The notes: a model not told the origin generated them from the sequence alone. A stretch of 64,000 nt of DNA from Solirubrobacterales bacterium (GCA_038318085.1 JBBQBV010000001.1:2728-66727); one strand, 5' to 3'; positions 5,500 through 64,000 are shown, counted from the stretch's first letter. Made by a program: numbers and translations.

Positions 5500-5509
5500 G
5501 CTCTGCGGC

Positions 5510-47290: not shown

Positions 47291-49142
47291 CGGCGCCCGC
47301 GAAGCGGACGAAGCCCACGTCGCCGAAGCCGCTCAGCGCGCTCGCCTTCAGCCCGGCGGGGGAGAGGGTGTAGAGCCGGTCCCCGATCACCAGTGAGCGG
47401 TCGATGGCGACGCCGTCGTGGGTGACGCTCCCGGCCTGGGTGATGCCGTCGTCGCGCACGGTGAAGCCGATCGCGCCGGAGAAGACCTGGCCGGCGCCGT
47501 CGTAGATCGATGCGGGCAGCACGGCGAGGTCGCGCTTGGGCCACCACAGGAACGCGTGGTGCTCGTACTCGGCCGTCGAAGAGGCGCCCTGGCCGAGGGC
47601 GGCGCGCTGCAGCAGCTTCGGCGCCGCGAGGTCGGAGACGTCGAACAGCGAGACCTGCGTGCCCTGCGTGCGGCCCTGCTCGCTCGCGTCCTGGCCGACG
47701 CCGATCAGCCGGCCGTCGCCCGCCGGATGCAGATAGGAGGAGACGCCGAGCAGCTTGAGCTCCCCGCTGACGCGCGGCTTCGCCGGGTCGGAGAGGTCCA
47801 GCGCGAACAGCGGGTCGACCTGGCGGAACGTCACGACGAAGGCCGCGTCGTCGACGTAGCGCACGGCGTAGATGCGCTCGCCGGCCCCCAAGCCGCTGAC
47901 GCGGCCGAGCGGCGCCAGCCCGGTGGCGGACTCCTGCAGGGTGGTGAGGTGGCTCTGGCTGGCGCTGGTGCCCGCCTCGGCAAACCACGGCGGCTCCTCC
48001 GTGCTCGCCACGCGCAGGACGCCGGCGCGCTCGGACATCGCGAACTGGCTGAGCAGGTAGCCGGGGACCTGGCCGCTGCCCGCGTAGGTCGTGACGTCGG
48101 GGTCGGCGATGTCGAAGCGGTGGATCTGGGTCGTGGTGTCCTGCGGCACCGGGCCGCCCGTCTCGGACTGCACCCGCGGCTGGTAGCGCTGGCTGGCGAC
48201 GAACAGGCTGTCCTTGGAGGCGTAGACCGTCTCGCCGCCCGACAGCAGGCCGTCGGCGTCGACCGGCTCGAGACCCTTGTCCATGTCGATCGTCAGCACC
48301 GTCACCTCTCCGAGGCCGGAGAAGGAGCGCGGGCGCCGCACGGAGCGGCAGCCGACCAGGGGGCGGCTGCGGGCCTTGCCGCTGCCGGCGGTGGCGAACG
48401 TGCCACGCGGCAGCCAGGCCCCGGTCGCGGCTCGGCCGGACGCGGGCTGCACGATCGCGCGCGGCAGGGTGGCCAGCACGAGCCGCGCCGAGGCGCCGAC
48501 GGCGCGGGCGGCGACGAGATCGCCCGCGAAGCTCAGGGTCTTGGTCAGCGCGGGATGGGCGGGATCGCTGACGTCCACGAGGGCGATCACGGTCTTGGGG
48601 GCGACGGTCGGCGGGGCGGGGCTCGGCGCCCGCGCGGCCTGGGCCAGCGGGGCGCCGTCGCCGTACTGGGTCCAGGTGACGAGCAGGCGGTCGCCGCGCA
48701 GCAGGAGCTGGTGGCCGTAGCCCGTCCCGAGCGCCAACGTCCCGAGCTCCTCGGGGGCGCCGCTGGAGACGTCGACGACGTGCAGCCGTCCGGCCTCGAC
48801 GGCGTACAGCGTGGTCCCGTTCGTCTTGACGATGTCGGGCTCGTGGACGCCCGCCTCCTGCACGTTGGTGACGGAGAAGTCCTCACCGGGAGTGGCCGCA
48901 GGGGGGACCGGAGCCGTCACCTCGCCCGCGGGCCCGCCGGCACCCGGCGCGGCGACGAGCGGCGGCGTCGGGACGGCGGCGGGCGGAGGCCCGTTCGGCG
49001 ACCAGCGTGGCGCGTGGCGCTTGCCGTAGGTCACGAGCTGCTTGCAGCTGGCGAAGCGCCTGAGCTTGGGCTTGGCCGCGTCGGCCTGCGCGCTGAGGCT
49101 CAGCATGACGACGAGGGCGAGCAGGGCCAGGACGCGGCGCAT
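47250..49142 (-). CDS. Secreted beta-propeller-domain protein
   Basis: ATG at 49142 gives the signal peptide MRRVLALLALVVMLSLSAQADA. FASCKQLVTYGK and a repeated-strand architecture resemble the 'beta propeller domain' family (from memory). Its 3' end overlaps the patatin 3' end by 41 nt. Confidence 0.6.
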   Translation of the reverse strand: MRRVLALLALVVMLSLSAQADAAKPKLRRFASCKQLVTYGKRHAPRWSPNGPPPAAVPTPPLVAAPGAGGPAGEVTAPVPPAATPGEDFSVTNVQEAGVHEPDIVKTNGTTLYAVEAGRLHVVDVSSGAPEELGTLALGTGYGHQLLLRGDRLLVTWTQYGDGAPLAQAARAPSPAPPTVAPKTVIALVDVSDPAHPALTKTLSFAGDLVAARAVGASARLVLATLPRAIVQPASGRAATGAWLPRGTFATAGSGKARSRPLVGCRSVRRPRSFSGLGEVTVLTIDMDKGLEPVDADGLLSGGETVYASKDSLFVASQRYQPRVQSETGGPVPQDTTTQIHRFDIADPDVTTYAGSGQVPGYLLSQFAMSERAGVLRVASTEEPPWFAEAGTSASQSHLTTLQESATGLAPLGRVSGLGAGERIYAVRYVDDAAFVVTFRQVDPLFALDLSDPAKPRVSGELKLLGVSSYLHPAGDGRLIGVGQDASEQGRTQGTQVSLFDVSDLAAPKLLQRAALGQGASSTAEYEHHAFLWWPKRDLAVLPASIYDGAGQVFSGAIGFTVRDDGITQAGSVTHDGVAIDRSLVIGDRLYTLSPAGLKASALSGFGDVGFVRFAGAASGGAGSATPPSP

Positions 49143-49231
49143 GCCGACGATGGTCCTCTCTGCGACCTGGCGCGTCAAGCGCCGGACCACTGGGCGCCAT
49201 GTCCCGGTGGTCCGTGACGCGCGAGCGAGGC

Positions 49232-50629: not shown

Positions 50630-51224
50630 CCAGCTCGGGCGCGAAGAGCCCATGGGCGACGACGCCCGGCACGGCGTCGAGCCGTGCCGCCAGCGCGGCC
50701 AGATCGTCGACCGGCCCGTGGTAGTCGGCGATGACGCCGCCGTCGGGGCTCGGCGGCGCGCCGTCGCGCACGGTCGCGTCCCCGAGCTCGCGCAGGGTCG
50801 CCTGCAGCCCGTAGGCGTGCAGCTCGAGCGGGATCGGCGCGCGGATCACGTCGACCGTCTTGTCCGATCCGGCGATCACGACGAAGCGCGCCGACGCCGA
50901 CGCGACGATCTTCTCGCGCGTGTGCGCCCCGCCGCCGCCCTTGACCAGCCAGCGGCCCGGGTCGACCTGGTCGGTGCCGTCGATGGCGATGTCGAGGCGG
51001 TCGAGGTCGTCGAAGGCCTCGACCTGCAGGCCGAGCTCGCGGGCGCGCCGCTCGGTGGCGTCGGAGGTGGCCACGCAGCGCACGCCCTCCAGGCGGCGCG
51101 CGGCGAGCGCCGTCAGCAGGTGCGCGACGGTGGAGCCCGTTCCGAGCCCGACGACCTGCCCGGGCTCCACCATCGCGGCGGCGGCCTCGGCCGCGACCCG
51201 CTTTTCGTGTTCTGGGTCGGTCAT
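50583..51224 (-). CDS. rpiA: Ribose-5-phosphate isomerase A
   Basis: ATG at 51224. VGLGTGSTVAHLL, IDGTDQVD and KGGGGAHTREKIVA motifs. Confidence 0.85.
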   Translation of the reverse strand: MTDPEHEKRVAAEAAAAMVEPGQVVGLGTGSTVAHLLTALAARRLEGVRCVATSDATERRARELGLQVEAFDDLDRLDIAIDGTDQVDPGRWLVKGGGGAHTREKIVASASARFVVIAGSDKTVDVIRAPIPLELHAYGLQATLRELGDATVRDGAPPSPDGGVIADYHGPVDDLAALAARLDAVPGVVAHGLFAPELVSEILIATGDQVTSL

Positions 51225-51273
51225 GGTGAGCAGAGCATGGCGTACCGCTCCGCTCGGTGTGAGGCGACGCACA

Positions 51274-52878
51274 ATGGGAGTGGACACTCACCTTCCCGGC
51301 GGTCATCATGAGCGGCCGATGGGCGCGACCGCCACCAACGCCGGGCGGCTGCGCGGCCCGGACACGATCACGGCCCGCCGCGCGCTGTTGCGCAGCGTCG
51401 ACCGCCGCCTCACGGTCTCGCAGTGGACCGCCCACGCGTTCGGCATCTTCGACGTCGTCGCGCTGCTCTTCTATGTCCTGCCCGGGCCGGTCAACCGCTC
51501 CGAGTTCACCGATCACCTGCACGCGAACGCCGTCGGGTTGGCGATCTACGTCCCACTGTCGATGATCGTCGGGACCATCGTCGGCAAGCGGATGAGCCCG
51601 ACGCGCATGGCCTGGATCGTCGAGGACCGCGAGCCGACGCCCGAGGAGCGCGGGCGGGCGCTGCGCGCCCCGATCTACGAGTTCAAGCTCGACGCCGCCC
51701 TGTGGCTCGGCGCGGCGGTGCTGTTCGCGGCGATCAACCTCCCGACCTCCGGCGCGCTCGCCCTCCACGTCGCCTGGACGATCTTCCTCGGCGGGCTGAC
51801 CACCTGCGGCGTCGCCTACCTGCTGCTCGAGCGCCAGCTGCGCCCGATCACCGAGCTGGCGCTCGCCGCCGGCCCTCCCGCGCGGCCCGCGTGGCCAGGC
51901 GTCGAGGGCCGCCTGGTCCTCGCCTGGCTGCTGGCGACCGGCATGCCGCTGCTCGGGCTCGTCTCGCTCGGTATCGACGGCCTCATCCACGACGTCTCCT
52001 CGGCTGAGATGGCGCGCAGCACGCTCGCGCTCGCGGTCGTGGCGTTCGTGACCGGCGCCGGCGTGACGCTCGTGACCGCCCGCACGGTGGCGCGGCCGCT
52101 GACCGCCGTGCGCAAGGCGCTCGGCCGCGTCCAGGCGGGCGATCTGGCCACGGAGGTCCGCGTCGACGACGGCAGCGAGGTCGGGCTGCTGCAGAGCGGC
52201 TTCAACTCGATGGTCGGCGGCCTGCGCGAGCGCGAGCGCATGCAGGATCTCTACGCGCGCCAGGTCGGGGAGGACGTCGCCCGCGCCGCCCTGGCCGACG
52301 AGCCGCGCCTGGGCGGGGAGGTGCGCGAGGTGGCGGTCCTGTTCGTCGACATCATCGGCTCCACGGCGATGGCCGCGCAGGCGCCACCCGAGCGCGTCGT
52401 CGCGCGGCTGAACCGCTTCTTCTCGGTGGTCGTGGACGTGATCGCCGCCCACGGCGGCTGGGTCAACAAGTTCGAGGGTGACGCCGCCCTGTGCGTGTTC
52501 GGGGCGCCCGTGGTCGCGGAGGACCCGGCCGGCTGCGCGCTGGCCGCCGGGCGCGAGCTCCGGGAGCGGGTGCGCCTGGAGGTGTCGGGCGTCGAGGCGG
52601 GCATCGGCCTGTCGGCCGGGCCGGCGGTGGCGGGGTGGGTCGGTGCGCTGCAGCGCTTCGAGTACACGGTGATCGGCGACCCGGTCAACGTGGCGTCACG
52701 GCTGTCGGAGCTGGCCAAGCAGCGGCCGGGTCGGCTGCTGGCCTCCGAGGCGATCGTCGTGCGCGCGGCTGCCGCGGACGAGCGTGACCGCTGGCCGCTC
52801 GGCGAGCCCGAGACGCTGCGCGGGCGCAGCACCCCGATGCGCCTGGCGTCGCCGGCCGACGCCCTCATCGCCAACTAA
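51274..52878 (+). CDS. Membrane adenylate/guanylate cyclase (multi-TM - HAMP - class III cyclase domain)
   Basis: ATG 51274 (alternative 51319). About six hydrophobic segments, HAMP (ARPLTAVRKALGRVQAGDL...SGFNSMVGGL), and a cyclase core VAVLFVDIIGST, KFEGDAALCVFGAP, YTVIGDPVNVASRL. Confidence 0.85.
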   Translation: MGVDTHLPGGHHERPMGATATNAGRLRGPDTITARRALLRSVDRRLTVSQWTAHAFGIFDVVALLFYVLPGPVNRSEFTDHLHANAVGLAIYVPLSMIVGTIVGKRMSPTRMAWIVEDREPTPEERGRALRAPIYEFKLDAALWLGAAVLFAAINLPTSGALALHVAWTIFLGGLTTCGVAYLLLERQLRPITELALAAGPPARPAWPGVEGRLVLAWLLATGMPLLGLVSLGIDGLIHDVSSAEMARSTLALAVVAFVTGAGVTLVTARTVARPLTAVRKALGRVQAGDLATEVRVDDGSEVGLLQSGFNSMVGGLRERERMQDLYARQVGEDVARAALADEPRLGGEVREVAVLFVDIIGSTAMAAQAPPERVVARLNRFFSVVVDVIAAHGGWVNKFEGDAALCVFGAPVVAEDPAGCALAAGRELRERVRLEVSGVEAGIGLSAGPAVAGWVGALQRFEYTVIGDPVNVASRLSELAKQRPGRLLASEAIVVRAAAADERDRWPLGEPETLRGRSTPMRLASPADALIAN

Positions 52879-52888
52879 TCTCAACGCG

Positions 52889-53752
52889 GTGAAGCGCCAG
52901 ATCAACGCCGCCCTCAGGCGGTCCGGGTACCAGCTGACCAGGATCACTCCGCGGGCGGGGGAGCCCGGCCGCCCGGTCCGGGAACGCCGGCGCAACCCGC
53001 GGCTGCTCCGCGAGCCGGCGTTCGTGCTCTCCACGGTCCGCTCGGGCTCGACCTTGCTGCGGCTGCTCTTGGACTCCCACACGCAGATCCACTCACCGCA
53101 TGAGATGCACCTCAAGGACCTCCGGGTCGAGGTCGGCGGCAAGTACGGCGAGAAGGCCCTCGCCGAGGTCAAGCTGGACCGCGACGAGCTCAACTACGTG
53201 CTGTGGGACTGGTACCTGCACCGCGAACTGGCGACGACGGGCAAGCCGATCCTCGTCAACAAGACGCCGAGCGACGTCTGGATCACCGACGGCATCCAGG
53301 CGTGCTGGCCCGACGCCCGCTTTATCTTCTTGCTGCGCCACCCGCTCGCCGTCGCGCGCTCACGCCAGGCGCTGCGCCCGGACGACGCGGAGGAGGGCAA
53401 CCTCAAGCGCGTGCTCAAGTACGCCACGGCCGTCGAGCACGCGCGCGAGACGCTGCCCGGGCTCACCGTGCGCTACGAGGATCTCGCAGCCGATCCGGTG
53501 GTGCAGACGCAGCGGCTGTGCGCGTTCCTCGGCGTCGCCTGGGAGCCGGAGATGCTCGAGTACGGCAGATTCTCGCACGGGCGCCTGCGGGCCGGGCTGG
53601 GCGACTGGAAGGACACGATCAGGACGGGAGAGGTTCAGCCGCCCAAGCCGCTGCCGGCGCTCGACGAGGTCCCGGAGCTGCTGCGGCCGATCACCGCGGC
53701 GTGGGGCTACTCAGAACCGGTCCGGCCCGAACTCGAACGATCGAAACGCTGA
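52889..53752 (+). CDS. Sulfotransferase-family protein (Stf0-like)
   Basis: GTG at 52889. PAPS 5'-phosphosulfate loop VLSTVRSGSTLL and a 3'-phosphate motif FLLRHPLAVARS. Confidence 0.7.
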   Translation: MKRQINAALRRSGYQLTRITPRAGEPGRPVRERRRNPRLLREPAFVLSTVRSGSTLLRLLLDSHTQIHSPHEMHLKDLRVEVGGKYGEKALAEVKLDRDELNYVLWDWYLHRELATTGKPILVNKTPSDVWITDGIQACWPDARFIFLLRHPLAVARSRQALRPDDAEEGNLKRVLKYATAVEHARETLPGLTVRYEDLAADPVVQTQRLCAFLGVAWEPEMLEYGRFSHGRLRAGLGDWKDTIRTGEVQPPKPLPALDEVPELLRPITAAWGYSEPVRPELERSKR

Positions 53753-54367
53753 CCTCATCGCCTTGACGAGGGCGCGGCCGCGGGCGCCGAGGCGCCGGCG
53801 GCCCTTGACCTGCCGGAAGGTGATGATCGCGCCGTCACGCACGCCGGGCAGCTCGGGGGGGACGGCGAGGATGTCGATCCCCGTGCCGGGCCGCTCGGCG
53901 CTCCCGTAGCTGAAGCCCACCTGGTAGCCGGGCGCCGTGTGCACGCGGGCCTTGCCGTCCGCCTGCAGCCTGAAGCTCGACACGCTGCCGGCGAGGCGCG
54001 CCGCGTAGCCGGCGGTGAAGGCCGGGAGCAGGCCGGCCACGTCGCCGCGGTAAGCGGGGAGGTGCAGGGCGCGTACCGTCACGGCCAGGCCGAGGCCGCG
54101 CCGGTGGCCCTGCAGGCGCAGCAGCTCGCCCGGGCGGGGCGTCGCGCGCTTGACCAGGCCAGGCGTCAGCAGGACGCTGAAGACCGGCGCCTGGCGGTGG
54201 ACCACCTGCTGCTTGCCGTCGAGCGGGTCGTAGAACACGAGCAGCGCGAGAAGCGTCAGAAGGACCAGGACCGCCGCGATGACCGCCACGCTCGTGCGCT
54301 GCCCGATCCCCCGCCGGCGCTCAAGAATCTGCGGAAGCGTCTCACCGAACTCCGCCTGCCCGGTCAC
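53711..54367 (-). CDS. Membrane-anchored hypothetical protein
   Basis: GTG at 54367 overlaps the upstream stop (GTGA). One TM segment (VAVIAAVLVLLTLLALLVF), then a globular domain of unknown function. Confidence 0.5.
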   Translation of the reverse strand: MTGQAEFGETLPQILERRRGIGQRTSVAVIAAVLVLLTLLALLVFYDPLDGKQQVVHRQAPVFSVLLTPGLVKRATPRPGELLRLQGHRRGLGLAVTVRALHLPAYRGDVAGLLPAFTAGYAARLAGSVSSFRLQADGKARVHTAPGYQVGFSYGSAERPGTGIDILAVPPELPGVRDGAIITFRQVKGRRRLGARGRALVKAMRSAFRSFEFGPDRF

Positions 54368-55896
54368 GCGGGCACCGCCTCGGCCGGGTCCGGGGCCGAC
54401 GCCGGCAGCGCGCGCCGCAGCGCCACCGCTGCGGCCAGCAGCGCCCACGTCAGCGGGTCCTCGAGGAAGGCGGCGTAGACGAGCGTGTGCACCACGAGCG
54501 CGGCGAAGGCGGCGGCCACGGCTGCGCGCGGCAGCGACACTCGCGCGCCGCGCAGCTGCAGCCGCAGCGCCAGGACGACCAGCAGCAGATAGGCGGCGAG
54601 TCCGATGATCCCCTGCTCGGCCGCGACGGTGACCGGGATCGTGTGCGACTCGGCCGGCGAGCGGGGGGAGAGCAGGTGCTTGCGGGCGCGGTAGCGCTCG
54701 GCGAAGGACCCCGAGCCGAAGCCCGCGAGCGGCCGGTCGCGCGCCATCTCCAGGCCGCCCTTGATCAGGTCGGCGCGCCCGCTGGTGGCCTTGTTGAGGT
54801 CGTCGAAGGAGCGCGACCCCAGGCCGACGGAGCCCGGGGCCGCCAGCGCGGCCGCGGCGGCCGCGACGACCAGCACGCCCGCGGTCAACAGGACCGGCTT
54901 CACACGCCAGCGCAGCGCCGCGAGGACGACGAGGCCGACGGCCAGCGCGGCGAAGCTCGACTCCGACAGCGACGGCACGAGCCCGGCCCACAGGACGGCG
55001 AGCGCCAGCGCGCAGCCGATGACGACGCGCCGCTGGCTCGCCCACAAGAGCACGCCCGCGACCAGCACCATGGCCAGGGCGAGGAAGCGCCCGTAGATGT
55101 TCGGATCGAAGAACAGCGAGTTCACCCGGAAGTACGGCTTGAGCTCGTTGGCGGTCAGCACCTTCTCGTTCGCGAGCAGCAGGTGTCGCGCCGCGTACTC
55201 GTACAGCCCGACGCCGGCGCACAGCAGCGCGAGGCCGAGCGTCAGGCCGAACGCCCAGCGCAGCAGCCGCGGCGTCCACGTCGCGTCGAGCAGCAGGCGG
55301 AAGAGCAGCGCGAAGGGCACGTAGAAGAAGCAGATGTCCTTGACGGCCGCTTCGACGTCGGTGGAGTAGATCGCCTGGGCCGCGTACAGGACGACGACGC
55401 CGGCCAGGACCCGCTCGACGAGCTCGACCCCCGTGCCGCGCCGGACGGGCGGGGCGCTGCGCGGCAAGCCCACCCGTGCGACCACGCCGCAGGCGATCAC
55501 CCCGTACAGCGGCAGCAGGAGGTTGGCGGTCTCGCCGCCGATCGTCAGCGGGATGCGCACCGGCAGGGCGGCGACGGCGCACAGGACGATCGCGCCCGGC
55601 CAGCGCCTGAAGATCCAGGCGCCGGCGGCCAGAGCCGCGAGGCCGGCCACCACGGCGCCGCCGAGCAGCGCCAGCCGGCCGTCGACGGCGTCCTTGACCT
55701 GCCCGCCGATGACGAGCCCGAGCGCCAGGGCGGCGAACACGACCGCCGCCACCAGGGCCGGCCGGCGCCGGCGCACATCCTCGATCCACAGCACGGCGGC
55801 GGCGGCGAGCGCCGCCGCCAGGGCGGCGGTTCCCTGCACGGCCGGGGCCACCGCGAGCAGCGTCACCGCCGGGACGGTATTGGGCGCGCCCGCCAC
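54364..55896 (-). CDS. O-antigen ligase / Wzy-like polytopic membrane protein
   Basis: 510 aa with at least 10 hydrophobic segments and a large loop containing ...GSGSFAERY...ESHTIPVTVAAEQG, typical of the Wzy_C family. The start is uncertain: GTG 55896 or 55866. Confidence 0.65.
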   Translation of the reverse strand: MAGAPNTVPAVTLLAVAPAVQGTAALAAALAAAAVLWIEDVRRRRPALVAAVVFAALALGLVIGGQVKDAVDGRLALLGGAVVAGLAALAAGAWIFRRWPGAIVLCAVAALPVRIPLTIGGETANLLLPLYGVIACGVVARVGLPRSAPPVRRGTGVELVERVLAGVVVLYAAQAIYSTDVEAAVKDICFFYVPFALLFRLLLDATWTPRLLRWAFGLTLGLALLCAGVGLYEYAARHLLLANEKVLTANELKPYFRVNSLFFDPNIYGRFLALAMVLVAGVLLWASQRRVVIGCALALAVLWAGLVPSLSESSFAALAVGLVVLAALRWRVKPVLLTAGVLVVAAAAAALAAPGSVGLGSRSFDDLNKATSGRADLIKGGLEMARDRPLAGFGSGSFAERYRARKHLLSPRSPAESHTIPVTVAAEQGIIGLAAYLLLVVLALRLQLRGARVSLPRAAVAAAFAALVVHTLVYAAFLEDPLTWALLAAAVALRRALPASAPDPAEAVPA

Positions 55897-55913: not shown

Positions 55914-57344
55914 GTGCGACGCCTCCTTCCAGCCGCGGCGACCATCGTAGGCATCGCCGTGGCGCTGCGGGTCGCCTACGACGCCTGGTATCTGAACTAC
56001 GACGCCCGCTACGGCCTTCTGTGGGCCCGCGACATCGCGCGCGGCCTCACCCCGGACTACGAGGCGCCCTTCGCCCCGACGCCGCACCCGCTGTCGACTG
56101 CCTGGAGCGCGCTCGCCCTGCCCTTCGGCCAGGACGGGGACCGGCTGATGGTGTGGTTCGTGCTGCTGAGCTTCGGGGCGCTGGTCTACCTCGCCTACCG
56201 GCTCGGCGCCGAGCTCTTCTCGCCGTGGGTCGGGGTCGTCACGGCGCTTGTCGTGCTGACGCGACCGGCGATGGAGCGCGACGCGCTCTACGGCTACCAG
56301 GACGTGCCGTTCGCGGTGCTGATAGTGCTCGCGGCGATCCTCGAGGCGCGCCGGCCGCGGCGCGGCGGCGCCGTGCTCGCCCTGCTGGTCGTCGCCGGGC
56401 TGATCCGCCCCGAGGCGTGGGTCCTCGGCGGGCTGTACTGGCTGTACCTGTTCGGATCGCGCACGTGGCCCGAGCGGCTCAGGCTCGCGCTGGTCGTGGC
56501 GATCGCGCCGGTCGCCTGGGCGCTGATGGACCTGATCGTCACCGGCGACGTCCTGCATTCGCTGCACGGGACCGCGGACCTCGCCGTGGCGGCCAACCGC
56601 CGCCGCAGCCTGTCCCAGGTCCCCTACTGGACCGCGAAGTACTACGCCGCCGCGCTGCGCGAGCCGCTCGTGCTCGGCGTGCCGCTCGGGCTCGCGTTCG
56701 CCTGGCGCCAGCGGGCGCGCTTCGGCGCCGCCGCCCGGCTGCCGCTGGCCGTCGCGGCGGCGATGACGCTCGTCTTCGCCGTCAACCCCGTGTTCGGGCT
56801 GCCCCTGATCGGCCGCTACGTCCGCACGCCGTCGGTCTTCCTGGCGCTGTTTTACGGGCTCGCCGTCGCGGGGTGGGCCCTGCTGGACCGCGAGCCGGCG
56901 CGCGAGCGGCGGATCTGGCAGGCGGTCGCCGCGGTCGCGGTCCTCGCCTCGCTCGTCTACGTCCCGGCCCACGTCGGCCTGCTCCGCGGCCTGCAGCAGC
57001 GCTTCGCCCGCGACGGCACGCTCTACGTCGACCTGCGCTCCGTGGGGCGCTCGGGGACCGTCCGGGCGGCCGCCCGGCGCTGCGGCCCGATCCTCGCGGC
57101 CGACCACCGTCCGATCCCGTACCTGCGCTGGTGGCTGGACGGCGATCCGGGCTCGGTCGGCACGGTCGAGGGCCGGCCCGCAGCGCTGGGCACCGCCCAC
57201 GTCGTCCTGCTCCCGCGCCGCGTCCGCCGCGTGCGCCGATTCTACGGCGTCAACTACCCGCAGGTCGCCCCGCCGGCCGGCGCGCGGCGCATCTACGAGA
57301 ACCGCTCCTGGCGGGTGTTCGCCCGGGCGGGGTGTGGTGGGTGA
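55914..57344 (+). CDS. GT-C-fold membrane glycosyltransferase (ArnT/PMT-like), putative
   Basis: 476 aa, polytopic, with an acidic first loop (YDARYGLLWARD) and a soluble C-terminal domain. The family call is tentative. Confidence 0.5.
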   Translation: MRRLLPAAATIVGIAVALRVAYDAWYLNYDARYGLLWARDIARGLTPDYEAPFAPTPHPLSTAWSALALPFGQDGDRLMVWFVLLSFGALVYLAYRLGAELFSPWVGVVTALVVLTRPAMERDALYGYQDVPFAVLIVLAAILEARRPRRGGAVLALLVVAGLIRPEAWVLGGLYWLYLFGSRTWPERLRLALVVAIAPVAWALMDLIVTGDVLHSLHGTADLAVAANRRRSLSQVPYWTAKYYAAALREPLVLGVPLGLAFAWRQRARFGAAARLPLAVAAAMTLVFAVNPVFGLPLIGRYVRTPSVFLALFYGLAVAGWALLDREPARERRIWQAVAAVAVLASLVYVPAHVGLLRGLQQRFARDGTLYVDLRSVGRSGTVRAAARRCGPILAADHRPIPYLRWWLDGDPGSVGTVEGRPAALGTAHVVLLPRRVRRVRRFYGVNYPQVAPPAGARRIYENRSWRVFARAGCGG

Positions 57345-57708: not shown

Positions 57709-58497
57709 CTACACGTCTTCGAGCGTGACCGCGTCCTGTGCCACGTCGAGGTAGTCGGTGTAGTGGTCGACGACCGTCTCGGCGTCGTCCCACATCTTCA
57801 GGACGCCCTTTTCGAGCCAGATCGCGCGGTCGCAGAGCTCCTTGATGGTGCCCAGGGCGTGGGAGACCAGGATGACCGTGCGGTCCTCGCCGCAGAGCTC
57901 GCGCATCTTGCGCGCCGACTTGCGCCGGAAGCGCGCGTCGCCGACGGAGAGGGCCTCGTCGATGAGCAGGATGTCCGGGTCCATGTTGACCGCGACGGAG
58001 AAGGCGAGGCGGCCGTACATGCCCGAGGAGTAGGTGCGCATCGGGAGGTCCATGAACTCCTCGAGCTCGGCGAAGGCCACGATGTCCTCGTACTTGTGCT
58101 CCATCTGCGTGCGCGTGAGGCCGGCGGCGAGGCCGCCGAGGATCACGTTCTGGCGCCCCGTGAGCTTGCGGTTGAAGCCGACGCCGAGCGCGAGCAGCGT
58201 CGACACACGGCCCTGGACCTCGACGCGGCCCTGGTTGGGCGGCAGGATGCCGGCGATCGTGCGCATGAGCGTCGACTTGCCGGCGCCGTTGGAGCCGACG
58301 ACGCCGAGCACGGTGCCGTGGGGGACGTCGAAGGAGACGTGCTTGACCGCGTTGACCTCGTGCACGATGCGCTCGCGGCGGCCGAGGCGCTTGACGGTGC
58401 CCTTGAGCGTCGGGTGGCTCTCGACCGACGTGCGGTAGGTGACCGAGACGTCCTGCACCTTGATGCTCAGGCGCTCAGAGGCGGACAGCGAACTCAC
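57709..58497 (-). CDS. ABC transporter ATP-binding protein (polysaccharide/teichoic-acid exporter type, Wzt/TagH-like)
   Basis: Walker A GSNGAGKST, signature YSSGMYGRL, Walker B ILLIDEAL. A short version without a C-terminal carbohydrate-binding domain. Confidence 0.85.
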   Translation of the reverse strand: MSSLSASERLSIKVQDVSVTYRTSVESHPTLKGTVKRLGRRERIVHEVNAVKHVSFDVPHGTVLGVVGSNGAGKSTLMRTIAGILPPNQGRVEVQGRVSTLLALGVGFNRKLTGRQNVILGGLAAGLTRTQMEHKYEDIVAFAELEEFMDLPMRTYSSGMYGRLAFSVAVNMDPDILLIDEALSVGDARFRRKSARKMRELCGEDRTVILVSHALGTIKELCDRAIWLEKGVLKMWDDAETVVDHYTDYLDVAQDAVTLEDV

Positions 58498-59353
58498 GCT
58501 CCCGGGACATGAAGAACAGGCCGCCGGCGATCATCGCGCCGCCGCCCCAGATCAGGGCGACAAGGACCGCGTGCCAGCCCGGCGCGTGGCCGGTGCGCAG
58601 GACGGCGTCCCAGGCGGCCAGCACCTGCCCGATCGGGTTGAGGTCGAGCAGGAACTGGTAGCGGCCGGGCATGCTGGAGGCGAAGTACAGGATCGGCGCC
58701 GAATAGAGCATCATGCGCAGTGCGTAGGGCAAGAAGCTCGCAAGGTCGCGAAAATAGACCTGCACGGCGGCCACGAGCACGGCGAAGCCGGTCGCGATCA
58801 TCGTCATGATCACGACGAGCGGGAGGACCCACAGCAGCTGCGGGCCGACCGGCAGCCCGAAGGCCAGGTGGATCGGGATGTACACGACCGCCGTCGGGAT
58901 GAAGCGCTTGAAGGCGGTGATCACCGACGAGATCGGCAGCAGCATGCGCGGGAAGGCGCTGTTGAGGATCAGCTTGCCGCCGCGGGTCACGGACTTCACG
59001 GCGTCGCGGATCGCGCCGGACACGTAGTAGTAGGCGAAGATGCCGGCCACCAGGTGCGGCAGGAAGTCCGGCGGCCGCCTGCCGCCGCGCACGATGTCGA
59101 TGAGGATGAAGTACACGCCGGCCAACAGCAGCGGGTTGAGCACGAGCCAGAGCTGGCCGAAGACGGTCTCGAAGTGGTCGGCGCGCAGCTTGGTGCGCGA
59201 GAGCTCGAGGGCGAACGCCCGCCGCCGCCACACCTCCTTGAGGTACTGGCGGATCGGTGGCAGCCCGACGAGATGGGGCTCGTAGACGTGCGACTGCGAC
59301 GCCCACTCGTTGGTGGCGTGGTGCTTGGCGGGCGCCTCGGTCGGGGTGCTCAT
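58475..59353 (-). CDS. ABC-2 type exporter permease (Wzm/TagG-like)
   Basis: ATG at 59353. Six hydrophobic segments and FGQLWLVLNPLL, typical of ABC-2 permeases. Overlaps the ATPase gene start. Confidence 0.8.
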   Translation of the reverse strand: MSTPTEAPAKHHATNEWASQSHVYEPHLVGLPPIRQYLKEVWRRRAFALELSRTKLRADHFETVFGQLWLVLNPLLLAGVYFILIDIVRGGRRPPDFLPHLVAGIFAYYYVSGAIRDAVKSVTRGGKLILNSAFPRMLLPISSVITAFKRFIPTAVVYIPIHLAFGLPVGPQLLWVLPLVVIMTMIATGFAVLVAAVQVYFRDLASFLPYALRMMLYSAPILYFASSMPGRYQFLLDLNPIGQVLAAWDAVLRTGHAPGWHAVLVALIWGGGAMIAGGLFFMSREREFAVRL

Positions 59354-59388: not shown

Positions 59389-60246
59389 CTACATGATCGG
59401 GGGGCGCCCGGCGCGGGTCATCCGCCACAGCGTGGAGGCCCGCAGCGGGCGCCGTTTCCCGGCGGGGAACCGCAGGCCGTCGCGATATCCGCGCAGCGTC
59501 TCCCCGACGGCCTGCCGCGACCGGTGGCGCGGGAGGGAGCGCAGCGCGAAGCTCAGGACATAGAGCGCCCCGATCGGGGCGGGGAGGTGCCGGCGGGCGA
59601 GGTAGACGCGGTTGCGGGCACCGTAGTAGAAGGAATACGCGTGCGGCGGGCCTCCGGTCACGGGGTGCAGCGCCGCGATGTCGCCGGCGTAGCGGATGTG
59701 AAAGCCCGCGTCCATGACGCGCCAGCCGAGGTCGATGCCCTCGTGCACGAAGCGGAAGCCGGCCGGCCAGCCGCCGACGGCGTCGAAGAGCGAGCGCCGC
59801 ACGGCGACCGCCCCCTCCCAGACGCAGGTGACCTCGCTCGACCGGGTGCGGTCTCCGACGCGCACGCGCGGCGTCCAGTCGCGCACCGGCGTGCCGCCGT
59901 CGCGGGGGTCAACGCGCAGCTGGACCATGCCCAGCGACGGGTCGGACGCGAACAGCGCCGCAACGCGCGCCAGCGCGTCGTCAGACGCCAGCGACGCGTC
60001 GTCGTCAAGAAAGAACAGCAGCTCGCCGCTGACGTGGCCGACGCCGGCGTTGCGCCCCGCCGGGATGCCCTCGTCGACCTCGACGTGCACCGCCGCCACG
60101 CCCGCCGGCAGGCCGGTCGGGGCCCACCCGTTGCCCACCACCGCGATTCCGAGCCCGACGCCGGTCTGGCGCAGCAGCGAGTCCAGGGCCAGGCGCAGGT
60201 CGGCGGGCTTGCGCCCCGTCGTCAGCAGCACGCAGCCGAAGGTCAT
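59389..60246 (-). CDS. GT2-family glycosyltransferase
   Basis: CVLLTTGRKP..., GIPAGRNAG, and FFLDDDA (the DxD motif). ATGA overlap with the upstream gene. Confidence 0.8.
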   Translation of the reverse strand: MTFGCVLLTTGRKPADLRLALDSLLRQTGVGLGIAVVGNGWAPTGLPAGVAAVHVEVDEGIPAGRNAGVGHVSGELLFFLDDDASLASDDALARVAALFASDPSLGMVQLRVDPRDGGTPVRDWTPRVRVGDRTRSSEVTCVWEGAVAVRRSLFDAVGGWPAGFRFVHEGIDLGWRVMDAGFHIRYAGDIAALHPVTGGPPHAYSFYYGARNRVYLARRHLPAPIGALYVLSFALRSLPRHRSRQAVGETLRGYRDGLRFPAGKRRPLRASTLWRMTRAGRPPIM

Positions 60247-61007
60247 CGCAGGCGGGCGGACGTGACGATGGCGGCAAGGTGCCCTACCGCGGTGACGGCG
60301 GCGATCGGCACGAGCGCTGTGACCAGTACGCGCGTGCCGTGGTGGTCGCCTCCGGCGGCGTCGACGATCGCCGCGGCCAGCGCGAGCAGCGTCGCCTCCA
60401 TCGCGACGAAGGCGCGAAAGAACGGGAAGAAGCCGACCGCGGTGCGCGCTCGGGCGAGCAGCGAAGGGCGCGGCGCGGCGGCCGCGGCGGTGTCGTCGGC
60501 GCTGGCCTGCCCGGACTCGAGCCGCGCGACGGCGACCAGCGCGCTCTCGGTGCGCACGGCCAGCGCGAGCAGGGCGGCGACGAGCCCGAGCACCGGCTCG
60601 CCGGCGCGCAGGCCCAGCGCCACCGGGAACAGCGTCTCGGTCAGGTAGTGGCCGAAGCGGTCCAGGTAGATGCCCACGGGGGAGAACTGCCGGCGCCAGC
60701 GGGCGAGCTCGCCGTCGGAGCAGTCGAGCAGGATCTGCAGCTGGATCAGGACCACGGCGGCGCCGGCGGTGAGGACGCCGTCGAGGGCCAGGCAGACGGC
60801 GGCTAGGACGCCGACGCCGATCATCAGCGACGTCACGGCGTTCGGCGTCAGGCGGGTGGGGATGAGCAGCCGCGTCAGGTACGGCGATCCGCGCCGGATG
60901 TACAGCCTCCCCGCCCAGTGCTCGCCGCTGTTGCGGGCGAAGATGGACGCGGGCTGGGTGACCTCGCGCAGCTCAGCGATCGACGGCCTCGGCGAAGGCG
61001 CTGACAC
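60243..61007 (-). CDS. CDP-alcohol phosphatidyltransferase-family protein
   Basis: The signature D-x2-DG-x2-AR...G-x3-D-x3-D is present as DCSDGELARWRRQFSPVGIYLDRFGHY. Polytopic. The GTG start overlaps the upstream gene's 3' end by 35 nt, so the start is uncertain. Confidence 0.8.
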   Translation of the reverse strand: MSAPSPRPSIAELREVTQPASIFARNSGEHWAGRLYIRRGSPYLTRLLIPTRLTPNAVTSLMIGVGVLAAVCLALDGVLTAGAAVVLIQLQILLDCSDGELARWRRQFSPVGIYLDRFGHYLTETLFPVALGLRAGEPVLGLVAALLALAVRTESALVAVARLESGQASADDTAAAAAPRPSLLARARTAVGFFPFFRAFVAMEATLLALAAAIVDAAGGDHHGTRVLVTALVPIAAVTAVGHLAAIVTSARLR

Positions 61008-62013
61008 GCCGCTGCACCTCCCCGTGGTCGAGGTCGAGGTGCTCGAGGATCGTGAAGCGTCCCGGCCGCGTCTCGGGCGCGTAGGCCACGGCCTCCGAGA
61101 ACTGCTCGGCGGTGAGGCCGAGGTCGGCCGGCGTGCGCGGCAGCGAGTGCCGCGCGAGACAGGCGCTCAGCGTGGCGAACATCGCGTCGTCTGAGCGCAA
61201 AAAGGTCGTGAACAGGCTCGCCGCGCCCGCCAGTTCCCCGTGGTGGGCTGTGCCGGGGAACAGGTGGTCGATCGCGTGCAGGATCTCGTGGTCGCCGCCG
61301 GAGCAGGGGCGGCTCGACCCGGCGGTGGCCATCGCCAGACCGGAGAGGACGAGCGCCTCGGCGAGCGCGAACAAAAAGGCGTCGTCCTGCACGCCGTCCC
61401 GGCGGTGCAGGATCGCCATCGCGGCGGTGTGGGCGAAGGTGACGGCGAGGCCGTCGACGGACTCGCCGCGCTCGCGCCCGGCCAGGCGCCAGTCGGCCAC
61501 CGCGGCCAGGTTGGAGACGGCGTCGCCGATCCCCGCCCGCCGCATCGCCAGCTCCGAGCGGCGCACGTAGTCGAGGTCGACCATGACGGCGATCGGCATC
61601 TGCACGCCGTAGGAGGCCTTGCGGCCGTCGTGCTCGAGCGAGGCGACCGGCGAGGCGAGGCCGTCGTGGGCGAGCGAGGTCGCCACGGCGACCATCGGCA
61701 GGCCCGTCAGCGTCGCGGCGTGCTTGGTCGCGTCGAGCGTCCGGCCGCCGCCGATGCCGACGACGGCGTCGTAAAAGCCGCCGCGCAGCCGCGTCGCGAG
61801 CTCGCGCGCCGCCTCGACCGTGCCGCCCTCGACGGTCCAGATCGCGGCGTTGACCAGGTTCGGGCGCAGCGCCGCCGCGATCTCCTCCCCGAGCCCGGGC
61901 CCGACCGCGACCGCGACGTGGCCGCCGCTGGAGATGCGCCGGTCGGCGAGCAGCGGGGCCAGGGACGCCACCGCGCCGGGGCCGATGTCGACCGCCAGCG
62001 GGGTGCCGATCAT
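60973..62013 (-). CDS. sn-Glycerol-1-phosphate dehydrogenase-like enzyme (AraM/EgsA type, Fe-ADH/DHQS superfamily)
   Basis: ATG at 62013. 346 aa. VVGIGGGRTLDATKHAA, VATSLAHDGLASPVAS (the G1PDH-typical S-x-DG-x-x-SP), GDAVSN, and GGDHEILHAID...HGE metal ligands. Confidence 0.7.
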   Translation of the reverse strand: MIGTPLAVDIGPGAVASLAPLLADRRISSGGHVAVAVGPGLGEEIAAALRPNLVNAAIWTVEGGTVEAARELATRLRGGFYDAVVGIGGGRTLDATKHAATLTGLPMVAVATSLAHDGLASPVASLEHDGRKASYGVQMPIAVMVDLDYVRRSELAMRRAGIGDAVSNLAAVADWRLAGRERGESVDGLAVTFAHTAAMAILHRRDGVQDDAFLFALAEALVLSGLAMATAGSSRPCSGGDHEILHAIDHLFPGTAHHGELAGAASLFTTFLRSDDAMFATLSACLARHSLPRTPADLGLTAEQFSEAVAYAPETRPGRFTILEHLDLDHGEVQRRVSAFAEAVDR

Positions 62014-62018
62014 GCGGC

Positions 62019-62753
62019 TCAGCAGCGGCACGCGACCTCGCGGGCCCGGACCAGGTCGGCGTGGTCGTCGACCTCGACCCACTCGACGCCGCCGATCGGC
62101 GTCGTGCCGATGCGCCCGCCGCGGTCGGCGAGCTCCTTGAAGCCGTCCTCGTAGTAGCGCTGCGGGTCGCGCTCGAACGTCACCCGCAGGGCCTCGGCGA
62201 GCGGCTCGGCGGCCTGCGGCTCGATCAGCGTGAGGCCGATGTACTCGCCGGCGGCGGCCGCCGGGTCGAGCGCCTTGTTGATGTCCACGAGCAGGCCGGC
62301 GTCTGACACGGAGACCTTCATCTCCTCCTCGCCGAGCACCTTCTCGTCGTCGAGCGCGATGACCAGCTCGGGGCCGCCTGAGCTGTCGATCAGCGCCTCG
62401 GTCACGCTGACGGGCGCGATCGTGTCCCCGTTGACCAGGACGACGCCGCGGTGAAAATGCGCCCGCGCGCACCACAGCGAGTAGGCGTTGTTCCACACCT
62501 CGGCCTTGTCGTTTACGACGAGCTCGAGGCTGACCCCGTGCTCGGCCTCCAGCGCGGTCCGGCGCTCGAGCAGCGCCGACGCCCTGTACCCGGTCACCAC
62601 CACGACGTCCGTGAGGCCGGCGCGGGCGAAGTTGGCCAGGCAGACGTCGAGAATCGTGCGGTCGCCGTCCACCGGCACGAGCGTCTTGGGCAGCGTGTCC
62701 GTGTACGGCGCCAGCCGGCGCCCGGCACCGGCCGCGAGGACCATGCCGATCAT
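62019..62753 (-). CDS. Nucleotidyltransferase (cytidylyltransferase-like, NTP_transferase fold)
   Basis: ATG at 62753 overlaps the upstream stop (ATGA). MVLAAGAGRRLAPYTDTLPKTLVPV is a G-rich NTP loop. 244 aa. It resembles LicC / inositol-1-P cytidylyltransferase-type enzymes. Confidence 0.75.
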   Translation of the reverse strand: MIGMVLAAGAGRRLAPYTDTLPKTLVPVDGDRTILDVCLANFARAGLTDVVVVTGYRASALLERRTALEAEHGVSLELVVNDKAEVWNNAYSLWCARAHFHRGVVLVNGDTIAPVSVTEALIDSSGGPELVIALDDEKVLGEEEMKVSVSDAGLLVDINKALDPAAAAGEYIGLTLIEPQAAEPLAEALRVTFERDPQRYYEDGFKELADRGGRIGTTPIGGVEWVEVDDHADLVRAREVACRC

Positions 62754-64000
62754 CCGCCCTCCTCCTCGTCGGTGTCGTCGGAGACGTCGACGCGCGCCGC
62801 GCGGCCCGCCGTGGTCCAGGTGCGCACCGCGTCGCCGACGAACAGCAGCGCGAAGAACGCGGCCGCGACCCAGTAGCCCGCCGGCAGCGCGCCCGCCACG
62901 AGCAGGATTACGCCCAGCACGATCCGCCCGTCCCAGCCCAGCCCGAGAGCCGAGACGAGCGCCGGCGGCTCCGTCCCGTGGTGGCGCAGCCGGTAGACGA
63001 GGTCGTACTCGCGAAAGCACACCGCGCACAGCAGCGCGAAGGCGGCGGGCACGGCCAGGCGCCCGTCCAGCGTCGCCAGCCAGGTGATGGTCGCGAACTC
63101 CGCCGCGCGCAGGGCGGGCGGGACCAGCCAGCGCAGGCGGTCGACATGGGGGCTGTGCGCCGACGCACCGCCCGTGAGGACGAGCCAGGCGACGACCAGG
63201 ACGGCGCCGACGTGCGACGTCCGGTCGCCGTTGACGACCAGGTTGACGAGCAGCGGCACCGCGCCGGCGCCGATCAGCGCGATCGGCACGGCCGGGAGAC
63301 CGATCCGCAGCCGCTTGGCGAGCGGCCCGTCGTCGCGGTAGAGCTCGATGCGGCCGCGCCCGCCGCCCGCCGGCGCCACCGCAGCCTGCGAGCGCAGCGC
63401 GCGCAGCAGCCGGCCGCCGAGGATGTAGGCGGTGGCGAACCCGCCCCAGCTCAGCAGCACGATGAACGTCACCCGGGGGGTGAACAGCGCCGCCGACAGC
63501 GAGATCACGGCGAAGCGCTCGCCGATCGGGAACTGGATCATCTTCTTGACCCAGACGACGCGGCGGCGGCGCCCCAGCCGGCGCCACCAGCGCACGGCGC
63601 GGTGCAGCGGGCTCCGCGGGACCGGGGCGGGCCGCTCCTCGCGCGCGAGCGGCGCCGAGCGCAGCCACACCGGCGTGTTGAGGCCGAAGCCGTCGCCGGG
63701 GACGTCGAGCGGGGCGTGGTCGACGCCGCCGATGATCTCCTGCTGTACCGCCGGATAGGAGAAGTCGACCGCGTGACGCGCGGTCTGCAGGGCGAGGCAG
63801 GCGCACGCGAGCACCCACACGTCGTCGCCGCTCTGGGTGGCGCCGAGCGCCAGGCCCGCGAATACGGCGTACTCCTTGGTGCGGTCGAAGATCGAGTCCA
63901 GCCACGCCCCGAACTTCGAGAATCGCCGCGTGTAGCGGGCGAGCTGGCCGTCGACGCAATCGAAGGTGAACGCGAGCTGCAGCAGCACGGCGCCCGTGAC
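62750..64000 (-). CDS. CDP-alcohol phosphatidyltransferase-family protein with long polytopic C-terminal extension (5' end outside the window)
   Basis: The signature DCVDGQLARYTRRFSKFGAWLDSIFDRTKE sits at the very start of the visible ORF, so the true N-terminus lies beyond 64000. At least 8 further hydrophobic segments follow. Confidence 0.75.
   Translation of the reverse strand, partial: VTGAVLLQLAFTFDCVDGQLARYTRRFSKFGAWLDSIFDRTKEYAVFAGLALGATQSGDDVWVLACACLALQTARHAVDFSYPAVQQEIIGGVDHAPLDVPGDGFGLNTPVWLRSAPLAREERPAPVPRSPLHRAVRWWRRLGRRRRVVWVKKMIQFPIGERFAVISLSAALFTPRVTFIVLLSWGGFATAYILGGRLLRALRSQAAVAPAGGGRGRIELYRDDGPLAKRLRIGLPAVPIALIGAGAVPLLVNLVVNGDRTSHVGAVLVVAWLVLTGGASAHSPHVDRLRWLVPPALRAAEFATITWLATLDGRLAVPAAFALLCAVCFREYDLVYRLRHHGTEPPALVSALGLGWDGRIVLGVILLVAGALPAGYWVAAAFFALLFVGDAVRTWTTAGRAARVDVSDDTDEEEGG

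Follow-up and report, generated by a model that had tools for sequence, protein, structure and literature searches.

Five adjacent genes on the minus strand at positions 59389-64000 of a 64,000-nucleotide stretch of DNA from a Solirubrobacterales bacterium (GCA_038318085.1 JBBQBV010000001.1:2728-66727; hereafter, the window) are predicted to form the core of a cytoplasmic-face pathway to a glycerol-phosphate envelope glycoconjugate, i.e. a wall polymer resembling teichoic acid or a lipid-anchored polymer, that would be made without TagD, TagB, or TagF. We give this reading, which draws on the protein sequences and their gene context, an even chance of being correct. In the order of transcription, the genes encode a large CDP-alcohol phosphotransferase (CDP-AP) with a DUF5941 region, a nucleotidyltransferase, a dehydrogenase that resembles glycerol-1-phosphate dehydrogenase (G1PDH), a small CDP-AP, and a glycosyltransferase (GT) of the GT2 type. 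This run had been proposed in an earlier annotation made from the DNA alone (the sequence-only reading), and all five genes were recovered with the domains assigned there in searches with Pfam and NCBIfam models. The window has a G+C content of 71-77%, and its nearest relatives are metagenome-assembled Solirubrobacterales (Thermoleophilia, Actinomycetota).

We conclude that the module is real and widespread and that it represents an uncharacterised variant of a pathway, assembled from enzyme families already known, rather than a system of a new kind. In Streptomyces, a synteny survey from 2026 places the same gene families beside tagG, tagH, and araM and describes them as "associated with teichoic acid biosynthesis" without giving a pathway or product (PMC13118837), and an umbrella-toxin preprint on Streptomyces TUA-WTA (WTA, wall teichoic acid) deals with TagF/TarIJ loci and not with a G1PDH-nucleotidyltransferase-CDP-AP module. 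As the sequence-only reading had supposed, we found no assigned product for this architecture in the open-access literature, nor a paper there on a glycerol-1-phosphate cytidylyltransferase, on natural CDP-1-glycerol, or on DUF5941.

The dehydrogenase groups with G1PDH and AraM

G1PDH sets the "archaeal" stereochemistry of glycerol. The proposed kinship of the dehydrogenase with archaeal EgsA and Bacillus AraM was borne out by sequence scores as well as by the predicted fold. Among NCBIfam models, the protein scored 218 bits with the G1PDH model NF002022 and 39 bits with GldA. In phmmer searches of the PDB, the best match was 3ce9 from Clostridium (140 bits), followed by Methanocaldococcus jannaschii G1PDH (MjG1PDH; 134 bits, 36% identity over 240 residues), Pyrobaculum (P. 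calidifontis) G1PDH (116 bits), and B. subtilis AraM (74 bits), with glycerol dehydrogenases (GldA) at 39 bits or less. An AlphaFold model of the protein (pLDDT 89.3) gave the Foldseek order 3ce9, G1PDHs (TM-score 0.83-0.85), AraM, GldA, other iron-containing alcohol dehydrogenases (Fe-ADHs), and dehydroquinate synthase (DHQS). An identity as an ordinary glycerol or alcohol dehydrogenase or as DHQS is ruled out by this ranking of scores and folds. Because the dehydrogenase does not cluster with GldA, ADH, or DHQS, the G1PDH reading stands, and we infer that the protein is a G1PDH-like enzyme with sn-glycerol-1-phosphate as its predicted product.

The motifs of the protein are GIGGGRTLDATK, AHDGLASP, AGIGD..SN..DW, SRPCSGGDHEILHAID, and HHGE; thus, the family motifs GGG..D..K, DG..SP, SRP.SG..H...HA.D, and HGE are all found. 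Of the two motifs named in the sequence-only reading, GGG..D..K is present as GGG-RTL-D-AT-K, whereas the S-x-DG-x-x-SP motif of archaeal enzymes (S-N-DG-I-A-SP) here reads A-H-DG-L-A-SP. In an alignment of 28 dehydrogenase sequences reaching down to 32% identity, residues G94-G96, D100, K103, D123, S127, P128, N174, D180, W181, R241, P242, S244, G245, H248, H252, H264, and G265 are invariant or nearly so, and all of them are matched in the sequences of the archaeal crystal structures (M. jannaschii and P. calidifontis G1PDH). D123, H248, and H264 occupy the presumed metal-ligand positions of GldA and G1PDH structures. RefSeq labels homologs of the dehydrogenase "iron-containing alcohol dehydrogenase family protein".

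Two side observations concern this family. 3ce9 (Clostridium acetobutylicum NP_348253) was deposited as a "glycerol dehydrogenase" and scores with the G1PDHs, so that the deposited name may be wrong. Separately, the 90%-identity cluster of a Nocardiopsis homolog (P0121) mixes Fe-ADH proteins of 349-355 amino acids with CDP-AP proteins of 256 amino acids, a mixture that the clustering may have produced artificially because the genes overlap or because a fused gene call bridges both.

The nucleotidyltransferase is tied to the dehydrogenase

The nucleotidyltransferase has an intact LAAGAGRRL...PK signature (sequence MVLAAGAGRRLAPYTDTLPKTL) that fits the pattern (L)xxGxGxRL...PK. Its best match in the PDB is the phosphocholine cytidylyltransferase LicC (1jyk; E 2e-9), and it is matched over its full length by Thermotoga maritima IPCT (4jd0; residues 4-234) and by the NCBIfam model NF041135 (residues 3-240). 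These matches agree with the earlier designation as a cytidylyltransferase and place the protein in the LicC/IPCT alcohol-phosphate type; its predicted function is that of a glycerol-phosphate cytidylyltransferase.

Among 101 non-redundant loci for which we counted neighbouring genes, the nucleotidyltransferase gene lies immediately 5' of the dehydrogenase gene on the same strand in 99, at a median distance of -6 nucleotides, and the two exceptions are contigs that start at the dehydrogenase gene. The pair spans lineages from Solirubrobacterales to Micromonospora. Moreover, a nucleotidyltransferase and a G1PDH-like domain are naturally fused in P0235, a metagenomic protein of 579 amino acids from an organism of low G+C content; over the full length, its N-terminal domain and the nucleotidyltransferase of the window share 30% identity (E 3e-29). 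Because of this fusion and the invariant gene overlap, we suggest that the two proteins would catalyse two consecutive steps, the pattern expected from the TarJ/TarI CDP-ribitol synthase.

Two CDP-APs of different build

The large CDP-AP runs off the end of the window, and we therefore followed the locus past this edge using two relatives with the same gene order as the window (L001, 94% identical; L002, 80% identical) and a full-length protein (P0272). In keeping with the sequence-only reading, which had described a partial CDP-alcohol transferase with a long polytopic tail, the window encodes the C-terminal 416 of the 820 amino acids of P0272, with DUF5941 as the tail (CDP-OH_P_transf E 2.9e-10; DUF5941 E 4.4e-26; both Pfam). 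The CDP-AP signature of the large protein, DCVDGQLARYTRRFSKFGAWLDSIFD (codons 63961-63884), has all eight of the conserved residues, and the P(D/N)xx(T/S) motif, with which the first transmembrane (TM) helix begins, is present as PNQVT in the large and as PNAVT in the small CDP-AP.

The N-terminus beyond the window, as seen in P0272, is a cytidylyltransferase-like domain. Foldseek matched the AlphaFold model of the 820-residue protein (pLDDT 89.5, pTM 0.88) best to IPCT-DIPPS (4mnd; E 5.6e-10 over 601 columns covering both domains) and then to AF2299, and the N-domain superimposes on the IPCTs 2xme and 4jd0 with TM-scores of 0.65-0.67. The GxGxR...K signature is not present in the N-domain of P0272 (VLFATAPGGPDGGPAAAF), the consensus of the family being ATAxAxDGG with neither Arg nor Lys at the signature positions. 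Because this signature is missing, the N-domain is probably not an active cytidylyltransferase, and with the lack of an inositol context in the neighbourhoods examined the degenerate N-domain leads us to reject a bona fide bifunctional IPCT/DIPPS. Some homologs of the large CDP-AP also match PF12804. Database labels for these proteins are "phosphatidylglycerophosphate synthase" for the large protein (JGI pipelines) and "CDP-alcohol phosphatidyltransferase family protein" for homologs of the CDP-APs (RefSeq).

DUF5941 corresponds to about six extra helices after the CDP-AP core in the model of the 820-residue protein (62750-63400 in the window). It forms one protein with the large CDP-AP in Solirubrobacterales and a separate open reading frame (ORF) of 220 amino acids in Streptosporangium longisporum (within 4242-7149 of locus L092), which indicates a separable membrane module; in 61 loci it lies directly 5' of the nucleotidyltransferase gene. 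CDP-APs with lipid acceptors have additional C-terminal helices (PMC4634129) and, by analogy, DUF5941 may hold a lipid-linked acceptor.

Class I CDP-APs share a signature of eight residues conserved without exception, D1xxD2G1xxAR...G2xxxD3xxxD4, in which D4 is the putative catalytic base and its change to Asn in phosphatidylinositol-phosphate synthase abolishes activity (PMC4634129). The signature of the small CDP-AP, D95xxD98G99xxA102R103(x8)G112xxxD116xxxH120 (DCSDGELARWRRQFSPVGIYLDRFGH; 60648-60725, minus strand), has seven of the eight, and D4 is replaced by His120 (codon 60650-60648). HMMER places a gap of four residues at this signature relative to AF2299; the ungapped register preserves the AR-8-G-3-D spacing. 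In a motif scan over 103 loci, the change from D4 to His was found in all small CDP-AP orthologs that matched the scan outside Micromonosporaceae, and Asp is kept at D4 in the large CDP-AP and in the single CDP-AP of Micromonosporaceae. This His variant is not known from other CDP-APs.

The best PDB sequence match of both CDP-APs is AF2299 (51.5 and 42.4 bits). Like DIPP synthase, AF2299 has a cytidylyltransferase-like domain at its N-terminus and a small hydrophilic donor pocket, which in these two enzymes suits CDP-glycerol or CDP-inositol (PMC4634129). The IPCT/DIPPS-like logic that had been proposed for the cluster is reflected in its CDP-APs, which are nearest to AF2299, a protein that binds CDP-glycerol, and to IPCT-DIPPS.

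Distribution in Actinomycetota

A pattern search built on a trimmed alignment of eight sequences and run over 185,579 species genomes returned at least 597 species genomes with a close homolog of the dehydrogenase. The best 80 of these at least 597 belong to Solirubrobacterales, Gaiellaceae, Frankiales, Streptosporangiales (Actinomadura, Nocardiopsis, Streptosporangium, Microbispora), and Micromonosporaceae (Micromonospora, Salinispora, Actinoplanes). A homolog of the large CDP-AP is present in 71 of the 101 loci and of the small CDP-AP in 76, with a GT2 homolog co-occurring with the latter in 67; an ABC exporter is adjacent in 44, and 29, mostly in Streptosporangiales, have an LCP (LytR_cpsA_psr) ligase no more than 8 kb away. 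In 37 of the 101 loci, again mostly in Streptosporangiales (e.g. L092, 888-4257), a TarI/IspD-like cytidylyltransferase is encoded directly upstream of the large CDP-AP, and the presence of two cytidylyltransferases and two CDP-APs suggests two different CDP-alcohol donors in this order. A CDP-AP gene follows the dehydrogenase gene in every lineage sampled. This includes the minimal trio of Salinispora; Micromonosporaceae have only the nucleotidyltransferase, the dehydrogenase, and a CDP-AP, plus a convergent GT4. In Gaiellaceae, the exporter genes come right after the small CDP-AP gene.

Gene map, exporter, and flanking genes

The features of the locus are listed in Table 1. Both of the start/stop overlaps of the ATGA type claimed by the sequence-only reading are present (large CDP-AP/nucleotidyltransferase and small CDP-AP/GT2), and the overlap that it saw between the dehydrogenase and the second CDP-AP measures 35 nucleotides. 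By contrast, the gap of 5 nucleotides in front of the dehydrogenase, which followed from a start at ATG 62013 and a protein of 346 amino acids, gives way to an overlap of 13 nucleotides with the upstream stop codon, because a start at GTG 62031 is likelier: homologs share the N-terminus MPLLSRM, and the protein has 352 amino acids in public gene calls.

Table 1 Features of the locus, from the window edge inward
Feature	Length (amino acids)	Coordinates	Strand	Basis
Large CDP-AP with DUF5941 tail, partial	C-terminal 416 of 820	62750->64000	-	Pfam
Nucleotidyltransferase	244	62019-62753	-	Pfam NTP_transferase and NTP_transf_3
G1PDH-like dehydrogenase	352	60973-62031	-	Pfam Fe-ADH_2, E 7.7e-30
Small CDP-AP	254	60243-61007	-	Pfam CDP-OH_P_transf, E 1.9e-07
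GT2 glycosyltransferase	285	59389-60246	-	Pfam Glycos_transf_2 family matches
ABC-2 (Wzm/TagG-like) exporter permease	292	58475-59353	-	Pfam ABC2_membrane and NCBIfam galactan_ABC_perm, both weak
ABC exporter ATPase, TagH/Wzt-like	262	57709-58497	-	Pfam ABC_tran, NCBIfam
Polytopic membrane protein without family	476	55914-57344	+	Hydropathy, conservation
Wzy_C/O-antigen-ligase-like membrane protein	510	54364-55896	-	Pfam Wzy_C, E 6.4e-17
ORF without family match, directly downstream of the Wzy_C gene	218	53711-54367	-	Equivalent gene in L001, 17504-18160
Sulfotransferase (Sulfotransfer_3), locus edge		52784-53752	+	Pfam, E 3.1e-26

The ABC-2 exporter that had been noted right after the GT2 gene is there, with a permease and a TagH/Wzt-like ATPase. 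The ATPase scores 213 and 183 bits with teichoic-acid export ATPase models of NCBIfam and 197 bits with galactan Wzt, all below the cut-offs, and the permease is weakly Wzm-like, with Pfam ABC2_membrane below its cut-off. The start of the permease is probably ATG 59353, in keeping with the gene call in L001, and the longest ORF reaches 59428. The class of the exporter is clear, and its putative cargo is predicted from the context.

The 476-residue protein has no match in Pfam, NCBIfam, or PADLOC. It has approximately 10-12 hydrophobic segments, and in 23 Solirubrobacterales loci its gene is conserved with the exporter on one side and Wzy_C on the other; a role as an extracytoplasmic GT-C-like transferase is possible. 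The Wzy_C gene is conserved in 17 loci and the sulfotransferase gene is found in 18 related loci, a recurrence that hints at sulfation of the product, which the sulfotransferase may modify. Upstream of the core, the two relatives have genes for a GT4 and a methyltransferase and for a GT2 that carries a TarS-linker domain. Proteins of the TagB/TagF (Glyphos_transf) and TagD types were found neither at 52-64 kb in the window nor in the neighbourhoods of L001, L002, and L092. The 20-kb neighbourhoods of these three loci have no inositol-phosphate synthase and no phosphatase, and in their annotated neighbourhoods there are no GGGPS/PcrB or UbiA-type genes.

Earlier in the window are housekeeping genes without relation to the locus, among them those for a primase, a dGTPase-like protein, a histidine kinase, and asparagine synthase. 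Genes for a large Beta_propel (PF09826) protein (47250-49190, minus strand) and a patatin-like phospholipase (45875-47290, plus strand) lie a few kb upstream, and the locus is flanked by a membrane protein with HAMP and adenylate/guanylate cyclase domains (all of these domains being taken from the equivalent in L001) and the Sulfotransfer_3 protein (50860-53752, plus strand). An anti-phage defence system was considered and ruled out, as there was no PADLOC match and the context is not that of such a system.

Proposed pathway and alternatives

In the pathway that we propose, the G1PDH-like enzyme would reduce dihydroxyacetone phosphate (DHAP) with NAD(P)H to sn-glycerol-1-phosphate, and the LicC/IPCT-type nucleotidyltransferase would join this product with CTP to CDP-glycerol, following the same logic as TarJ/TarI for CDP-ribitol. 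Both CDP-APs would then act at the cytoplasmic face, moving glycerophosphate from CDP-glycerol with release of CMP to hydroxyl acceptors that differ between the two enzymes, the acceptor being probably lipid-linked for the large CDP-AP with DUF5941 and a second one, a growing chain or a sugar, for the small His variant. Sugars would be added by the GT2 and by the neighbouring GT4 and TarS-like GTs, and the lipid-linked product would be exported through the TagG/TagH-like ABC-2 transporter. Finally, the Wzy_C-like and 476-residue proteins would carry out extracytoplasmic attachment or finishing here, a part that LCP ligases would take in other lineages. If the stereochemistry of the first step is archaeal, the polymer would carry sn-glycerol-1-phosphate units from a nucleotide-activated donor.

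Several observations weigh against this pathway. The dehydrogenase, at 218 bits, stays below the equivalog cut-off of NF002022 (413 bits), as do ten diverse relatives, actinobacterial and other, that score 226-355 bits with the same model. The small CDP-AP has no fourth signature Asp and may therefore have a different or weak chemistry; furthermore, the nearest solved CDP-APs, AF2299 and DIPPS, use soluble acceptors (PMC4634129). Neither an LCP ligase (tblastn) nor a TagO-like initiating enzyme was seen in the window, and the module of Micromonosporaceae has no exporter within 8 kb, showing that the link to an exporter is not universal. Finally, a decoration with a single glycerophosphate would fit the evidence as well as a polymer backbone.

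We also considered that the product could be a membrane lipid head group, such that CDP-glycerol made from glycerol-1-phosphate (G1P) would be used in a Kennedy-type route with diacylglycerol or a glycolipid as acceptor, giving phosphatidylglycerol with an sn-1'-linked head group or a glycerophospho-glycolipid, and the exporter and GTs would be neighbours that use or decorate the lipid. CDP-APs are classically phospholipid synthases, the JGI label of the large protein names such an enzyme, the minimal trio of Micromonosporaceae is accompanied by a GT4 only, and the approximately six helices of DUF5941 recall the extra C-terminal TM helices of CDP-APs with lipid acceptors (PMC4634129). However, both CDP-APs are nearest to AF2299 and DIPPS, with their soluble donors, and not to CDP-diacylglycerol or CEPT-type enzymes, and an exporter, an LCP ligase, a TarS-like GT, and Wzy_C adjoin the module in many lineages. 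We regard a head group as unlikely, with the proviso that it overlaps the envelope glycoconjugate model, because a lipid-anchored, lipoteichoic-acid-like product is compatible with both.

Alternatively, the dehydrogenase and the nucleotidyltransferase could act on another substrate pair, converting a ketose or polyol phosphate to another CDP- or NDP-polyol, or G1P could be an acceptor rather than a donor; in either case the product would be phosphodiester-linked but have no sn-1 glycerophosphate derived from CDP-glycerol. The score of the dehydrogenase below the curated cut-off is in line with this idea, as are its best PDB match to the uncharacterised Clostridium "glycerol dehydrogenase", the additional similarity of the N-terminus of the nucleotidyltransferase to sugar-1-phosphate transferases, and the second, TarI-like cytidylyltransferase beside the large CDP-AP in Streptosporangiales, with which two CDP-alcohol donors would be possible. 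On the other hand, all of the residues invariant in the G1PDH-like family are conserved, including those in common with the sequences of DHAP-bound MjG1PDH; AraM, a proven G1PDH, is farther from archaeal G1PDH than the dehydrogenase of the window is; and the P0235 fusion together with the invariant gene overlap argues for consecutive steps. We therefore hold a different substrate pair to be improbable.

Of the two outcomes foreseen in the sequence-only reading, the glycopolymer or glycolipid is favoured by the exporter, GT2, GT4, TarS-linker GT, and Wzy_C genes and by the LCP and TarI-like genes of Streptosporangiales, and the other outcome fared less well: a cytoplasmic phosphodiester compatible solute (diglycerol-phosphate or glycerophospho-X), which would arise by an IPCT/DIPPS route from CDP-glycerol and a polyol phosphate through a phosphorylated diester and its dephosphorylation, is very unlikely even though the closest solved relatives are such enzymes (IPCT-DIPPS as the top fold match and AF2299, which binds CDP-glycerol; PMC4634129) and the large protein has the same order of a cytidylyltransferase-like domain and a CDP-AP, because the examined neighbourhoods lack a phosphatase and an inositol-1-phosphate synthase, the N-terminal domain is without GxGxR...K, the large CDP-AP has an extra membrane module, a GT2 shares translational coupling with the module and a polymer-type ABC-2 exporter comes next, with LCP genes in other lineages, and the module is spread among hundreds of mesophilic soil actinomycetes rather than (hyper)thermophiles.

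Returning to the envelope glycoconjugate, a sharper version of it is that many Actinomycetota would build poly- or oligo-(sn-glycerol-1-phosphate) wall teichoic acid or lipoteichoic acid (LTA) intracellularly, with a CDP-sn-1-glycerol donor from the G1PDH and the LicC-type enzyme, and with CDP-APs, one of them having His for Asp, in place of TagF or LtaS. We offer this version tentatively and, with all of its parts taken together, consider it doubtful.

Implications

Phylogenies of the lipid divide already contain actinobacterial homologs of G1PDH, which fall into a bacterial G1PDH clan (mostly Firmicutes and Actinobacteria) that has been discussed almost exclusively with regard to this divide and to a possible capacity for archaeal-like lipids (PMC5059525, PMC6431249). 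An actinobacterial G1PDH-like gene that is tied to a cytidylyltransferase and a CDP-AP, and not to prenyltransferases, points to a different use of bacterial G1P. Bacterial CDP-glycerol usually comes from glycerol-3-phosphate via TagD-family enzymes (PMC8262930); if our proposal is correct, the module would be a natural source of the CDP-glycerol enantiomer, which is not otherwise known to be made, and the builders of envelope phosphodiester polymers would come to include integral-membrane CDP-APs, among them a variant in which the canonical catalytic Asp is missing. Some actinobacteria make poly(glycerol phosphate) LTA without clear LtaS orthologues, the synthase being unknown (PMC3196553), and the module is a testable candidate for this missing enzyme. 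Should the doubtful version with intracellular poly(sn-glycerol-1-phosphate) made by CDP-APs be true, it would explain the role of the deep bacterial G1PDH clan other than in archaeal-type ether lipids, the LTA of LtaS-less actinobacteria, and the function of DUF5941. The module is found in cultivable and tractable genera, namely Nocardiopsis, Actinomadura, Streptosporangium, Micromonospora, and Salinispora, and also in Streptomyces according to the synteny survey (PMC13118837).

Comparison with known systems

With the WTA pathway of Bacillus and Staphylococcus (TagD, TagB/TagF, TagG/TagH, LCP), the proposed pathway would share a cytoplasmic CDP-polyol, phosphodiester transfer at the membrane, GTs including the TarS-linker type, and TagG/TagH-like ABC-2 export, and LCP genes lie beside the module in Streptosporangiales. 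It differs in that the role of TagD would fall to an enzyme of the NTP_transferase fold and that of TagB/TagF to integral-membrane CDP-APs, and in that the glycerol phosphate would come from DHAP via the G1PDH-like enzyme, with an expected sn-1 configuration instead of the sn-3 configuration of classical WTA (PMC8262930). Similarly, the TarI/TarJ (Bcs1) CDP-ribitol synthase combines a dehydrogenase/reductase with a cytidylyltransferase encoded side by side and sometimes fused, as in P0235 here, but the enzymes of the module belong to unrelated families (an Fe-ADH_2/DHQS-like fold and a LicC/IPCT-type NTP_transferase) and their predicted substrate is DHAP, whereas TarI/TarJ uses ribulose-5-phosphate.

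The Archaeoglobus fulgidus IPCT/DIPPS (4mnd) has the domain order, the CDP-AP signature, and the logic of a soluble CDP-alcohol donor in common with the module; in contrast, the large CDP-AP has a degenerate N-domain, with an intact nucleotidyltransferase encoded separately downstream, and approximately six extra TM helices in DUF5941, and the genomic context is one of envelope polymer export with no inositol-phosphate synthase nearby. AF2299 (4o6m/4o6n) resembles the large CDP-AP in its cytidylyltransferase-like N-domain, and its pocket fits the glycerol of CDP-glycerol (PMC4634129). Unlike the proteins of the module, of which the small CDP-AP has the His and the large one DUF5941, AF2299 has six TM helices and four signature aspartates; its own physiological reaction is unassigned.

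The dehydrogenase shares with EgsA and AraM the fold, the positions of the metal ligands, and the signature motifs, and the difference lies in the partners: EgsA feeds ether lipids through GGGPS and AraM feeds PcrB, which makes heptaprenylglyceryl phosphate, whereas the partners in the module are a nucleotidyltransferase and a CDP-AP. Finally, LtaS-dependent LTA would have the sn-glycerol-1-phosphate unit in common with the product of the module if the dehydrogenase is a true G1PDH, but LtaS polymerises this unit extracellularly from the head groups of phosphatidylglycerol, whereas the route proposed here would be cytoplasmic, nucleotide-activated, and dependent on an exporter.

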